Positions 43,701-49,700 of a stretch of 64,000 nucleotides of DNA are shown here, piece by piece. Location of the stretch: NCBI RefSeq assembly GCF_016903815.1, contig NZ_CP069973.1. One strand, written 5' to 3'. The position numbers are program-made. Positions within the stretch are counted from its first letter, which is position 1, and every line of letters begins with the position of its first letter. This stretch comes from Escherichia coli (lineage in GTDB: Bacteria > Pseudomonadota > Gammaproteobacteria > Enterobacterales > Enterobacteriaceae).

Positions 43701-46700
43701 CACGGTGACCATCGCCACGGTGGCGGGTGACGATATTATCAACAACGCCGAGCAGCTTGCCGGGCAGACCATCAGTGGCACCACCACCGCTGAAGTGGGC
43801 CAGACGGTGACCGTCACCTTTAACGGTCAGAGCTGGACTGCAACGGTCGGCAGCGGCGGAAGCTGGTCGGTGTTTATTCCGGCGCAGCAGTTTGCCGGAT
43901 TAAGCGACGGCAGCTACACCATTAGCGCGACGGTTAGCGATCAGGCCGGAAACCCCGGCAGCGCCAGCCGTGGCGTGACGCTGAACGGCGACGTCCCCTC
44001 CGTCACCATCAACACCTTTGCGGGCGATGATGTGGTGAATGCAGCGGAGCACGGCTCGTCGCTGGTGATCAGCGGCACCACCACCGCACCCATCGGGCAG
44101 ACGCTGACCCTGACTTTAAACGGCAAAACCTACACCACTACGGTGCAAACGGGCGGTAGCTGGAGCTACACCCTCGGCAGCGCCGATGTCACCGCGCTGG
44201 CGGACGGCAATGCCTATGTGATTAACGCCTCGGTGAGCAACGCCATTGGCAATACCGGTAGCAGCAATCACACCATTACTGTCGATCTCAGCGCCCCGGC
44301 GATGGGCATTAATATCGATTCCCTGCAAGCCGACACTGGGCTTAGCGCCAGCGACTTTATCACCAGCGTCAGTCCGGTGGTGGTCAACGGCTCGCTCACC
44401 GCCGCGCTTGCCAGTAACGAGACGGCGCAAATCAGTATCGACGGCGGCGTAACCTGGACCACGCTCACCGTTACCGGCACGACCTGGCGCTATAACGACA
44501 GCCGCACGCTGACCGATGGCAACTATCTCTATCAGGTGCGGGTGATTGACGCAGCGGGCAACGTCGGTGCCACCGACAGCCAGAATGTGGTGATCGACAC
44601 CACCGCGCCAGACCCAGCGGTGAAAACCATCGCCATTAGCGCGATCACCACCGATACGGGCTTGATCACTAACGATTTTGTCACCAGCGACACGACGCTT
44701 GCGGTGAGCGGCACGCTGGGCGCGGCGCTTTCTGCTGGTGAGTTCGCGCAAATCAGTATCGACGGCGGCACCACCTGGCAGAACCTGTCAGTAAGCGGCT
44801 TAACCTGGACCTGGCTTGACGGGCGGACGCTGACCGATGGCAACTACAACTATCAGGTGCGGGTTATCGACACCGCCGGAAATATCGGCGCGACCGCCAG
44901 CCAGATAGTCACTGTGGACACCACCGCGCCGCTGGCGAGCAAAACCATCGCCATTGCTGGCATCAGCGATGACACCGGGTTAAGTAGCAGCGATTTTGTT
45001 ACTCGCGACACCACGCTGACCGTGCGCGGCACGCTCGGCGCGGCGCTTGCCGCCGATGAACGGGCGCAAATCAGCCTCGACGGCGGTGTCACCTGGACCA
45101 CGTTAACCGTTATCGGCACCAGCTGGAGCTATGCCGATGGTCGCACACTGACCGACGGCACCTGGAACTACACGGTGCGGGTGGTGGATCTGGCGGGGAA
45201 CGTTGGGCAGACCGCAACGCAAAATGTGGTGGTCGACACCACCAGCCCGGAAGCGGCGAAAAGTATCACCATTACCGGTATCAGCGATGACACCGGAGCC
45301 AGCAGCAGCGATTTTATTACCAGCGACACCTCGCTTACCGTGCGCGGCGTATTGGGGGCGGCGCTCGGCGCTAACGAGTTCGCGCAAATCAGTACCGACA
45401 ACGGCGCAACCTGGGTGAACGTGACCGTCGCCGCAGACGGCCTTAACTGGAGTTACGTTGACGGACGCACGCTCACCAACGGCACCACCACCTGGCAGGT
45501 GCGGGTGGTCGATCTGGCGGGCAACGTTGGCGCAACCGGCAGCCAGTCGGCGCAGATTGACACCGTGAACCCGGCGCAGGTGCTCACCATCGCCAGCATC
45601 AGCACCGACACGGGGAGTTCGGCAACTGACTTTATCACCAGCGATACCTCGCTCACGCTGACCGGTTCGCTGGGGGCGGGGCTTGCCAGCGGCGAAGTGG
45701 CGCAGATTAGCCTCGACGGCGGCGCGACCTGGATCACGCTCACCACCAACGGCACGCAGTGGACCTACACCGACGGCCGCACGCTGACCGACGGCAGCTA
45801 CGTTTATCAGGTGCGGGTGCTGGATCTGGCGGGAAATACCGGTCCGGTGGTGTCGAAAACGGTGGTGGTCGATACGATTAACCCCACCGCGACGCCGACC
45901 ATTGTGTCGTACACTGATGACGTCGGGCAGCGGCAGGGGACATTAAGCAGTTCGCAGGCCACCGACGACACTACGCCGTTGCTGAACGGCGTGCTCTCCG
46001 GCCCGCTTGCCAGCGGTGAAGTGGTTTACCTCTACCGTAACGGCCTGCTGTTAGGCGCGGTAACGATGGTAGGCGCACTGAACTGGACCTACAGCGACAG
46101 CGGGCTGGTGAGCGGTGCCTACACCTACAGCGCGCGAGTGGTGGATCTGGCGGGGAATATCACCTCCTCCAGTGATTTTGTCCTGACGGTCGATACCTCT
46201 ATTCCGACCACGCTGGCGCAAATTACCAGCCAGACCACGCGCGATACCACGCCGATTATCAGCGGGGTGATCACGGCGGCACTCGCCAGCGGGCAGTATG
46301 TTGAAGTGGTGATCAATGGCAAAACCTACACCTCTGAACCGGGCGGTGCGGTGGTAGTCGATCCGGCGCACAACACCTGGTATGTGCAACTGCCGGATAC
46401 CGATGCGCTGACAGTTTCCGCGACCGCCTATACCGTTACTGCGCAGGTAAAAAGCTCGGCGGGCAACGGCAATAACGCCAATATTAGCAACGGCACGGTG
46501 ACGGTTAACGCGGCGATTGATTACACACCGACCTGGACCACCACCAGCAAAACCACCGCCTGGGGGCTGACCTACGGCCTCGACTCGCACGGGATGTGGA
46601 CGGTGCTGGCAAACCAGCAGGTAATGCAATCGACTGACCCACTCACCTGGTCGAAGACCGCGCTGACGCTGTATCAGAGCGGCAACAACTACGCCACCAG

Positions 46701-49700
46701 CTCCATCGCCGATTACGACCGTAACGGTACGGGCGATCTGTTTATTACCCGTGATGACTACGGTACGGGGTATATCAACGGCTTTACCAATAACGGCGAC
46801 GGCACCTTTTCCAGCGCTATTCAGGTCACCGTCGGCACGCTGACGTGGTACGGCTCGATTGTGGCATTTGATAAAGAGGGCGACGGCTATCTCGACTTTT
46901 GGATTGGCGACGCGGGCGGGCCGGACTCCAACACCTTCCTGTGGAACAACGCAGGTACGCTGGTAGGCAACTCCACCACGTCGAACAGCGGCGGTAGCGC
47001 TACGGTGGGCGGGGCGGTGACGGGGTATCTTTCGCTTAACGAAGGTTCCGGCGTCGATCTGAATAATGACGGCAGGATCGACCTGGTTCAGCACACCTAC
47101 AACCTGAACAACTATTACACGCTATCTTCGCTCATCAACCAGGGGAATGGCACGTTTGTCTGGGGGCAGAACACCACCAATACCTTCCTGAGCGGGGCGG
47201 GCAGTGGCGCTATGAGCAGCAGCGTTTCCATGACCTGGGCAGATTTCGATGGTGACGGCGATATGGATCTCTTCCTGCCTGCCAGCCAGGGAAGAGCTAA
47301 CTACGGCTCCCTGTTATTCAACACCAACGGCGTGCTGGGCAGTCCGGTGGCGGTGGGGGCAACGGCAACCACCTATGCCAGCCAGTTTAGCGTGGCGGTG
47401 GACTGGAACCATGACGGTCTGATGGATATCGCCCGTATCGCCCAGACCGGACAATCGTATCTTTATACCAACGTCAGCAACGCCAGCAACTGGACACAAT
47501 CGGCCCTCGGAAGCAGTCAGAGCGGCACTACCAGCGGCGTGGCGGCAATGGACTACGACTGGGACGGCGCGGTGGATGTGCTGGTGACTAAACAGTCGGG
47601 CAGCGTCTATCTTATTCGCAACACCAACACGGTGAGCTACGGCACCTCGCTGCACCTGCGCATCACCGATCCTAACGGCATTAACGTCTATTACGGCAAT
47701 ACCGTAAAACTGTACAACTCGGCGGGAGTGCTGGTCGCCACGCAAATCATCAACCCGCAGTCGGGTATGGGCGTCAACGACACCTCGGCGCTGGTCAATT
47801 TCTACGGGCTGAACGCCGGAGAAACTTACAACGCCGTGCTGATCAAATCCACCGGCACCACCGCCAGCAATATCGACCAGACGGTCAACACCAGCTGGGG
47901 CGGCTTACAGGCCACCGATGCCACCCACGCTTACGACCTCAGCGCTGAAGCGGGCACCGCGAGCAACAACGGCAAGTTCGTCGGCACGGGCTATAACGAC
48001 ACCTTCTTTGCCACTGCAGGCACCGACACTTACGACGGTTCCGGCGGCTGGGTGTACAGCTCCGGCACCGGAACGTGGCTTGCGAACGGCGGCATGGACG
48101 TGGTTGATTTCCGCCTCTCGACGGTGGGTGTGACCGCAAATTTAAGCGTCACCACCGCGCAGGCTACCGGTTTTAACACCTCGACATTTACCAATATCGA
48201 AGGGATATCCGGCTCGAATTTTAACGACACTCTGACTGGCAGCAGCGGCGATAACCAACTGGAAGGGCGCGGCGGCAACGACACCCTTAACATCGGCAAC
48301 GGCGGTCACGACACCTTGCTCTATAAACTGCTCAACGCCAGCGACGCCACCGGCGGCAACGGCTCAGACGTGGTGAATGGCTTTACGGTAGGGACATGGG
48401 AAGGCACCGCCGATACCGATCGCATTGATATTCGCGAGCTGTTGCAGGGCAGTGGCTACACCGGCAACGGCAAAGCCAGCTACGTCAACGGCGTAGCAAC
48501 GCTGGATGCGCAGGCCGGAAATATCGGTGATTTTGTCAAAGTCACCCAGAGCGGCAGCGACACCATCGTGCAGATCGACCGCGACGGCACGGGCGGCACT
48601 TTTGCGACAACTAACGTGGTCACGCTGACGGGCGTGCATACCGACCTTGCCACTTTGCTGGCGAATCATCAGTTGATGGTGGTGTAGAGAATGAAAAAAA
48701 ATGCCCAGTCCGTGGAAGCCTGGCTGGAGGCGATGATCGCCGTGGCGCGTTATTACCGCCTCGATTTTTCTCAGGAGAACGTGCGCGCAACCGTCAACTG
48801 GGAGCGCGACAGCAAGCGGGAAGAGTTGCTCACCGATATGGCGCGGCAGTTGGGAATGGGGTTACGGCTGGTGGAGTTTTCCGCCGATTCGCTTAACCCG
48901 TGGCGACTGCCGTTGATCGCCGTGTTCGATAATCAGCAGATTGGCGTGATCACCCGCCGCGATAACCACGACAATATCAGCGTTCAGTTCAGCGGTGACG
49001 AAGGGCTGGAAACCACGCTTAACGTCGCGGATATTGAAGATAAAATCGTCGAACTGGCGCTACTGCGCCCGCTCAGCGCCATCCCCGACGCGCGCGTGGA
49101 TGACTATATTCGCCCGTATCAGGCGAACTGGTTCTGGAATCTGTCGCTGAAAGACTGGCGGCGTTATGGCGATATTATGCTGGCCTCACTGGTGGCGAAC
49201 GTGCTGGCGCTGGCGGCGATGATTTTCTCGATGCAGGTTTACGACAGGGTGGTTCCGGCGCAGTCCTACCCGACGCTGTGGGTGCTGTTCGCCGGGGTGA
49301 TGATGGCGATCCTGTTTGAATTCTGTATGCGCATGGTGCGCACGCACCTTTCCGATGTGATCGGCAAGCGGGCGGATCTGCGCATTTCGGATCGCGTTTT
49401 TGGTCACGCATTACGGCTGAAAAATAACGTGCGATCGAAATCCACCGGATCGTTTATCTCGCAGATCCGCGAACTGGAATCGGTGCGGGAGCTGATCACC
49501 TCCACCACCATTGGTGCAGTGGCGGATCTGCCGTTCTTCCTGCTGTTTGTCTTTATTTTGTGGATGATTGGTGGCTGGCTGGTGCTGGTGGTTTTGCTGG
49601 CGCTGCCCTTGCTGGTGATCCCCGGCCTGCTGGTACAACGCCCGCTGGCGCGGCTGGCGAACGAAGGGATGCGCGAGTCGGCGGTGCGTAACGCTACGCT

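Follow-up and report, generated by a model that had tools for sequence, protein, structure and literature searches.

RTX adhesins are exported with their C-terminus first, and extracellular calcium then folds the RTX roll and, after it, the rest of the protein. Since the N-terminal module of such an adhesin stays at the channel, the non-repeat module at the C-terminal side becomes the distal tip. Modules of the BapA prefix type belong to the kind that keeps LapA-like adhesins attached to the outer membrane. In adhesins of the MpIBP type, ligand-binding domains are located just ahead of the RTX block and the type I signal, as described in passages of PMC5550230 and PMC12077191. For Escherichia coli, a study published in 2025 deals with O-island 28 (OI-28) of enterohemorrhagic E. 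coli (EHEC) O157:H7. Passages of this study state that deletion of OI-28, or of any one of its five genes, lowers adherence to Caco-2 cells and colonization of mice, that RstA together with extracellular calcium activates the island, and that calcium raises both the adherence and the colonization linked to it (PMC12758282).

Here, we analyzed a stretch of 64,000 nucleotides from E. coli (contig NZ_CP069973.1), referred to as the window, with a focus on positions 46500-48687. This region comprises the last ~728 residues of an open reading frame (ORF) of 6925 amino acids (27910-48687, + strand) and forms the distal, C-terminal end of SiiEA, a known giant surface adhesin of E. coli. The whole gene, siiEA (27910..48687, + strand), encodes a BapA-related RTX adhesin, according to the ORF listing and to the NCBIfam family NF047714 (adhesin_SiiEA), which was matched with 508.1 bits against a cut-off of 425 (amino acids 1-230, profile positions 1-229 of 229). 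A search of 5426 complete E. coli genomes located the 2188 bases at the 3' end of siiEA in 957 of them, always on the chromosome, and all matches were annotated as "siiEA: BapA-related adhesin SiiEA" (several at 100% identity). The locus is OI-28 of EHEC O157:H7, which is sited between ybaT and cueR. Both siiEA and its secretion system have been annotated before (RefSeq siiEA, NCBIfam NF047714); because the gene is named and the O157:H7 locus has been studied experimentally, a confirmed domain reading adds little. The only fresh detail is the predicted tip of the protein, a CRTAC1-like unit of propeller and sandwich in which the calcium sites are conserved and the loops vary.

Predicted domains at the C-terminus of SiiEA

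An earlier note on this DNA, made from the sequence alone, had described a shift from an immunoglobulin-like (Ig-like) array to Asp-rich FG-GAP/VCBS-like repeats, followed by RTX-like nonapeptides and the tail of a type I secretion substrate. The observation was confirmed, and its interpretation was supported in every testable part. All ten peptides quoted in the note were present in the + frame of ORF 27910..48687 upon translation. An iterated hidden Markov model (HMM) search starting from one repeat identified 60 tandem copies between residues 185 and 6200 and nothing significant beyond; the one-repeat profile was significant to residue 6200 only, which lies almost at the start coordinate given in the note (46500).

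Downstream of the array, residues ~6202-6571 (46513..47622, + strand) are predicted to form a seven-bladed FG-GAP beta-propeller. Asp-rich motifs were read from the translation of the + strand as DYDRNGTGDLF (residue 6268, nucleotide 46711), FDKEGDGYLDF (residue 6320), LNNDGRIDLV (residue 6384), DFDGDGDMDLF (residue 6445), DWNHDGLMDI (residue 6498), and DYDWDGAVDVLV (residue 6548). Expressed as calcium hairpins of the form Dx[DN]xDGxxD, six putative calcium sites are located at residues 6268, 6321, 6383, 6445, 6498, and 6548, and blade 1 (residues ~6206-6260) is the one without such a motif. Across 39 sequences, the Asp/Gly positions were invariant in four of the six hairpins. Pfam returned three matches to FG-GAP_3 (PF13517, formerly VCBS; E 1.6e-9 to 1.7e-7) and further, weaker ones, as well as a match of the C-terminal region to FG-GAP (PF01839) at E 0.008. 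FG-GAP profiles were further matched in 36 of the 39 homologues at E <= 0.001.

The earlier note had suggested a domain search and a structure prediction as checks. The former yielded FG-GAP_3 and, for the RTX part, HemolysinCabind in Pfam. The latter was carried out with AlphaFold2 on alignment A2, starting at residue 6188, and gave a model with a mean predicted local distance difference test score (pLDDT) of 85.0 and a predicted template modeling score (pTM) of 0.89. In this model, residues 15-384 (amino acids 6202-6571 of SiiEA) contain 28 beta-strands, which we read as seven four-stranded blades. These are followed by a seven-stranded beta-sandwich (model residues 393-491, amino acids 6580-6678), by short strands at a spacing of about nine residues that resemble a beta-roll (model residues ~499-640, amino acids 6686-6827), and by a small terminal domain (model residues 650-738, amino acids 6837-6925). 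Each Dx[DN]xDGxxD motif is modeled between strands 1 and 2 of a blade. Strand counting and fold matches suggest that the seven blades close a ring, and profiles, blades, and calcium hairpins jointly predict an FG-GAP propeller of the integrin type. The FG-GAP/VCBS-type repeats of the note hence reappear in the PF13517 matches, in the 28 modeled strands, and in propeller folds among the structural matches.

A feature that the note had overlooked is the beta-sandwich of ~110 residues between the propeller and the RTX part (residues ~6572-6682; 47623..47955, + strand), which is ASPIC/UnbV-like in fold alone. A Foldseek search of the PDB with the model revealed CRTAC1 as the top structural match (E 8e-10), and the matches also include the UmbA4 propeller, the integrin-like lectins PVL and PAL, and integrin alpha subunits. 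In AFDB50, proteins named "CRTAC1 family" or "ASPIC/UnbV domain-containing" were matched over ~500 columns with E 1e-21 to 1e-18, ranking after E. coli fragments and homologues of the same family; the former carry the name "RTX family exoprotein" or "Adhesin for cattle intestine colonization". At the level of the predicted fold, the unit appears to consist of a propeller followed by a domain of the UnbV_ASPIC type. In an hhalign comparison of the whole module, the blades alone matched a bacterial CRTAC1-family protein with a probability of 98%.

The RTX region (residues ~6683-6827; 47956..48390, + strand) is predicted to form a short beta-roll, based on Pfam, phmmer, Foldseek, and the model. 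It begins with a degenerate RTX-like block (GTGYNDTFF ATAGTDTYD...), which had escaped the earlier note, and continues with a linker ending in NIEGI. This linker is followed by the four nonapeptides that had been quoted, i.e., GSNFNDTLT (residue 6768), GSSGDNQLE (residue 6777), GRGGNDTLN (residue 6786), and GNGGHDTLL (residue 6796; IGNGGHDTLL in the running sequence), all read on the + strand, and finally by ...GGNGSDVVN. Several lines of evidence agree with the RTX assignment. HemolysinCabind (PF00353) was matched at residues 6768-6802 (E 1.1e-4) and was found in 30 of 39 homologues at E <= 0.1. The only matches of phmmer in the PDB were RTX blocks of Bordetella CyaA (E 5e-5), with the nonapeptides aligned and NIEGISGSNFNDTLTGSSGDNQLEGRGGNDTLN set on the CyaA block junctions. 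Foldseek matched the modeled RTX part to PrtC, serralysin, and blocks IV-V of CyaA (E ~4e-5).

The protein ends with a type I secretion C-terminal target domain of the VC_A0849 subclass (residues 6820-6922; 48367..48675, + strand). The corresponding NCBIfam profile TIGR03661 (T1SS_VCA0849) was matched with 34.5 bits against a cut-off of 17.6, covering profile positions 1-90 of 91. The last residues read ...LLANHQLMVV* (TDLATLLANHQLMVV*) and end at 48687, and the consensus TDLxTLLANHQxxV of the tail is kept in the homologues. Given these Pfam, phmmer, and NCBIfam matches, the motifs quoted in the note are no product of chance.

Full-length homologues of the last 639 residues were identified at 40-58% identity in Pluralibacter, Enterobacter, Huaxiibacter, Limnobaculum, Acinetobacter, Pseudomonas zeae, Diaphorobacter, and Bartonella apis, and several of them are named type I secretion target-domain proteins. 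We determined conservation as the mean frequency of the top residue per structural element in 37 homologues other than E. coli clones. The calcium hairpins (1-2 loops) were the most conserved element of the propeller (0.69), followed by the propeller strands (0.44), the 3-4 loops (0.39), the 2-3 loops (0.35), and the 4-1 loops as the least conserved element (0.29, with 20% gaps). Indels are carried by the two least conserved loops (4-1 and 2-3). Values for the sandwich and the RTX part were 0.65 each, and the signal domain reached 0.58. In propellers of the integrin type, the ligand face is formed by the 4-1 and 2-3 loops, opposite the calcium hairpins. If this geometry holds for SiiEA, scaffold and secretion apparatus would be conserved, and the putative recognition face would be diversifying.

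Several ORFs on the minus strand overlap the region antisense to siiEA, for example 46051-47094 (347 amino acids). Since the plus-strand frame is fully accounted for by homology, they were set aside.

N-terminus, stalk, and secretion genes

At its N-terminus, SiiEA carries a BapA prefix-like domain (residues 5-132; 27922..28305, + strand), the presumed retention module, which was matched by Pfam BapA_N (PF22783, E 2e-18) and by NCBIfam biofilm_BapA_N (71 bits, cut-off 35). A DTAAGG string at residues ~96-101 (28195-28212) lies inside this domain and resembles T-A-A-G, the di-alanine motif at which LapG cleaves adhesins of the LapA type. A sequence search of the PDB with the N-terminal 200 residues gave matches at chance level only. 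The extender follows as the tandem array of ~100-residue Ig-like repeats of the Big_13/Ca_tandemer type (residues 185-6200; 28462..46509, + strand), as delimited by the iterated HMM. These repeats were also matched by Pfam Big_13 and by NCBIfam Ca_tandemer (311 bits), and their relatives in the PDB include the RII tetra-tandemer of MpAFP/MpIBP (E 8e-16) and the Ig domains BIg50-52 of SiiE (2yn3, E 5e-9). With BapA_N and the 60 repeats, the protein has both the retention module and the tandem Ig-like extender of an RTX adhesin.

The gene order of the locus is copA, glsA, ybaT, a TolC-family gene, siiEA, an ABC transporter gene, an HlyD adaptor gene, cueR, ybbJ, and qmcA. The G+C content of the giant gene is 58-62%. 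Flanking housekeeping genes have ~46-56% and the 5' edge of the island has 46%, a pattern that fits a horizontally acquired island. Genes for a cognate ABC transporter, membrane-fusion protein, and outer-membrane channel are all located beside their substrate, the channel gene being frameshifted. The ABC gene (48691..50853, + strand) encodes a type I secretion permease/ATPase of the LssB type (TIGR03375, 833.7 bits, cut-off 693) with Pfam ABC_membrane and ABC_tran domains; a weak match to Peptidase_C39 at residues 12-82 (E 0.029) indicates that its N-terminal domain is degenerate C39-like. The gene of the periplasmic adaptor of the HlyD family (50850..52025, + strand) was assigned by TIGR01843 (322 bits, cut-off 209). 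Together with the TIGR03661 match above its cut-off, the adjacent TolC-family, LssB-type ABC, and HlyD genes support the earlier suggestion that the protein is a type I secretion substrate.

The TolC-family outer-membrane channel gene (26447..27801, + strand; the equivalent of tolC28) lacks one A at ~26497 when compared to strain F344, where the coding sequence (CDS) of 451 amino acids is intact. This change (TTTTTTTAATAAG in F344, TTTTTTTATAAG in the window) leads to a TAA stop in the part coding for the signal peptide. A residual ORF of 431 amino acids (ATG at 26506; 26506-27801) spans the whole TolC profile without the start of the signal peptide, and it matched TIGR01844 with 416.8 bits against a cut-off of 225. 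RefSeq strain 7/2, in which the 3' end of siiEA is 100% identical to that of the window, has the channel CDS as a frameshifted pseudogene. A megablast comparison with 41 nucleotides around the deletion matched no genome, most likely owing to low-complexity filtering of the T-run.

On the other side of the island, the stop of the HlyD adaptor gene overlaps the start of cueR (52022-52429, NF007590) by 4 nucleotides (52022-52025). Because of this overlap, cueR may be transcribed together with the acquired secretion genes, or coupled to them at translation, in strains bearing the island. A small hypothetical ORF (52633-53055, - strand) lies between cueR and ybbJ. A second, small adhesin gene beside the island (53109-54125, - strand) encodes a YadA-family trimeric autotransporter adhesin of 338 amino acids with weak matches to the C-terminal anchors of EmaA and Vomp, and an ORF of 120 amino acids without a family match is located at 54492-54854 (+ strand). 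In strain 7/2, a gene for an RHS element core protein and an IS1 transposase gene follow ybbP (L001 37398-42188). In another genome (H11, strain 98228), IS1B is annotated under the match that runs across the TolC-family gene into the beginning of siiEA.

Export and possible function of the propeller-sandwich

It is highly probable that SiiEA combines a retention module, a 60-repeat stalk, the propeller-sandwich, an RTX block, and a type I signal with adjacent genes for its secretion. With this architecture, the last ~100 residues, an uncleaved domain of the VC_A0849 type, would be recognized by the adjacent LssB-type ABC transporter and the HlyD adaptor, and the C-terminus would exit first via a TolC-type channel. 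Outside the cell, calcium would fold the short RTX beta-roll, which would prevent back-sliding and nucleate folding. Calcium would also stabilize the seven-bladed propeller and the packed sandwich, and then the 60 Ig-like repeats upon their emergence. At the outer membrane, the prefix domain of the BapA type would be held back, leaving the propeller-sandwich at the tip of a long stalk, where it could act as a ligand-binding head. Folding order, surface retention, and ligand binding by the propeller are steps that we infer. The adherence seen with O157:H7 mutants (PMC12758282) supports export and surface display only indirectly.

We lean, with some caution, towards the propeller-sandwich as the ligand-binding head, judging by its position, by its lectin and integrin analogues, and by its variable loops as opposed to conserved calcium sites. 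A binding domain at the tip fits the RTX-adhesin paradigm, given BapA_N, the Ig extender, and a non-repeat module before the RTX part. By analogy with PVL and UmbA4, the ligand could be a glycan; by analogy with CRTAC1 and integrins, it could be a host protein. A broader proposal is made more tentatively: the CRTAC1-like unit might represent an undescribed class of ligand-binding head of RTX adhesins, common to the homologues in Enterobacteriaceae, Acinetobacter, Pseudomonas, Diaphorobacter, and Bartonella, and it might also be the receptor determinant behind OI-28-dependent colonization of the gut, its specificity for host or ligand being determined by the variable 4-1 and 2-3 loops. Residues ~6200-6680 are a sensible piece for host-ligand hunting or for the design of blocking agents.

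Several findings weigh against such a head on a functional adhesin. At the sequence level, UnbV_ASPIC (Pfam PF07593) matched neither the query nor any of the 39 homologues, and hhalign of the sandwich profile against 16 CRTAC1-family proteins placed the expected columns in register with an E of 0.2 and a probability of 0.3%. The variable loops are assigned to the top face from knowledge of integrin-type propellers and would lie there only by this analogy. LapG and LapD genes were not annotated in the flanks covered, i.e., ~20 kb upstream of the island in strain 86-24 and ~20 kb downstream of it in strain 7/2; these flanks hold only housekeeping genes, the YadA-family autotransporter, and an RHS element. 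Furthermore, siiEA of O157:H7 is flagged as a pseudogene by RefSeq (internal stop, incomplete; strain 86-24, L003 21796-41836, an interval that corresponds to 27910 onward of the window), and the complementation in O157:H7 is described in passages of the OI-28 study as having used truncated Ig-domain constructs (PMC12758282). The published phenotypes are therefore not specific to the propeller. The domains named in those passages are of the RTX and Ig-like kinds, and a propeller-sandwich head is not among them (PMC12758282). Since siiEA is annotated as an interrupted pseudogene in O157:H7, RtxA28 and RtxB28, the "two RTX proteins" of the study, most likely represent two fragments of a single siiEA gene. 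Finally, with its channel gene frameshifted, the lineage of the window would depend on the housekeeping TolC for export, if export takes place at all. Lineages differ in the component that is broken, which is the channel gene in this one and the adhesin gene in O157:H7; this matters when published phenotypes are read.

Assignment of the sandwich to UnbV_ASPIC by sequence was dropped, as Pfam was empty and hhalign gave an E of 0.2. With no match at the sequence level, the unit is called CRTAC1-like in fold and is not filed as a family member.

The frameshift raises the question of whether the system in this strain is a decaying remnant, with an intact adhesin ORF and export lost. The deletion of 1 bp relative to F344 with its stop in the signal-peptide part, the pseudogene flag in RefSeq, and the interruption of siiEA itself in O157:H7, which shows that the locus does decay, all speak for this explanation. 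We regard it as doubtful, since a stop-free ORF of 20.8 kb is unlikely to last long without selection, the downstream ABC and membrane-fusion protein genes are intact, the housekeeping TolC serves many type I systems, and a single-base difference beside a homopolymer could be a sequencing error common to related assemblies. A different role of the tip would be that of a module for contacts between bacteria or with the matrix, as in biofilms of the BapA/LapA style, or of a cap for the calcium-dependent folding of the stalk, instead of a head for host receptors. Such a role seems unlikely, because variable loops next to conserved calcium sites look more like a diversifying recognition surface and because lectins (PVL, UmbA4) as well as receptor-binding proteins (CRTAC1, integrin alpha) are among the closest folds with a solved structure. 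It does gain from the N-terminus and the NCBIfam name, both of which tie SiiEA to the biofilm adhesin BapA, and from homologues of the module in environmental or insect-associated Diaphorobacter, Pseudomonas zeae, Acinetobacter, Bartonella apis, and Limnobaculum, with no mammalian host in common. The passages of the OI-28 study bear on both sides: Ig domains alone partly complemented the adherence of O157:H7, and the locus affects adherence to epithelial cells (PMC12758282).

An enzyme carried at the tip, e.g., an FG-GAP propeller acting on polysaccharides, is very improbable. Neither the Pfam nor the NCBIfam scans revealed an enzyme family, and the invariant residues are the Asp/Gly of the calcium loops and structural Gly/Trp, not an obvious catalytic set. 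To our knowledge, the top structural match CRTAC1 is non-enzymatic, which also counts against catalysis. What favors it is that some FG-GAP/VCBS propellers are catalytic, that aldos-2-ulose dehydratase (4a7y) is among the weak Foldseek matches (E 4e-4), and that a protein named "enediyne biosynthesis protein E4" by its source (P0116) is among the distant sequence matches.

Comparison with known systems

OI-28 of O157:H7 carries the same gene, siiEA, and shares the site (ybaT - island - cueR) and the TolC/ABC/HlyD neighbors with the window. The two differ in that siiEA of the window is one uninterrupted ORF of 6925 amino acids, whereas siiEA of O157:H7 is split or flagged as a pseudogene. The gene name itself was given by analogy with SiiE of Salmonella (SPI-4), which is likewise a giant type I adhesin with Ig repeats, and the Ig repeats of both are related (2yn3, E 5e-9). 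Orthology to SiiE, as suggested by the name, was rejected: the N-terminus is of the BapA type, only the Ig repeats are related, and no siiAB-like accessory genes for a proton channel were annotated in the flanks of the locus (strain 7/2, RefSeq).

SiiEA resembles BapA of Salmonella and LapA of Pseudomonas fluorescens in its BapA_N prefix, Ig-like extender, C-terminal RTX part, and secretion of the VC_A0849/LssB type. The T-A-A-G string near residues 97-100, which resembles the LapG site, adds to this likeness; a difference is that genes for LapG and LapD are not annotated in the flanks of the SiiEA locus. We know of no description of an FG-GAP propeller head for BapA or LapA.

Regarding the individual domains, the beta-roll of CyaA, serralysin, and PrtC has nonapeptides of the GGxGxDxUx type in common with SiiEA, and "...NIEgi.GS" is aligned to the CyaA block junctions. 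The RTX part of SiiEA is much shorter, with ~5 good nonapeptides plus the degenerate block, and its repeats often have N-D where the CyaA/serralysin/PrtC type has G-x-D. Integrin alpha subunits, PVL, and PAL share FG-GAP blades with Dx[DN]xDGxxD hairpins (Foldseek E 2.5e-5 for PVL and ~1e-4 for alpha-V/alpha-5). They differ by an identity of 9-18%, a poor global superposition (template modeling score, TM, 0.2-0.3), and the lack of a beta-subunit partner for SiiEA. The identity between the SiiEA tip and CRTAC1 (murine, PDB 9etn) or the ASPIC-UnbV family is only 15%, and members of the CRTAC1 family are exported via Sec or the type IX secretion system (T9SS) or are secreted eukaryotic proteins, whereas the SiiEA unit ends a giant type I secretion adhesin.

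The plan of retention end, calcium-rigidified Ig extender, and ligand domains before RTX part and signal is the same in MpIBP of Marinomonas primoryensis, FrhA, MhLap, and Lap of Aeromonas. In the MpIBP type, the ligand domains are sugar-, peptide-, or ice-binding domains or carbohydrate-binding modules, and the predicted CRTAC1-like propeller takes this position in SiiEA.

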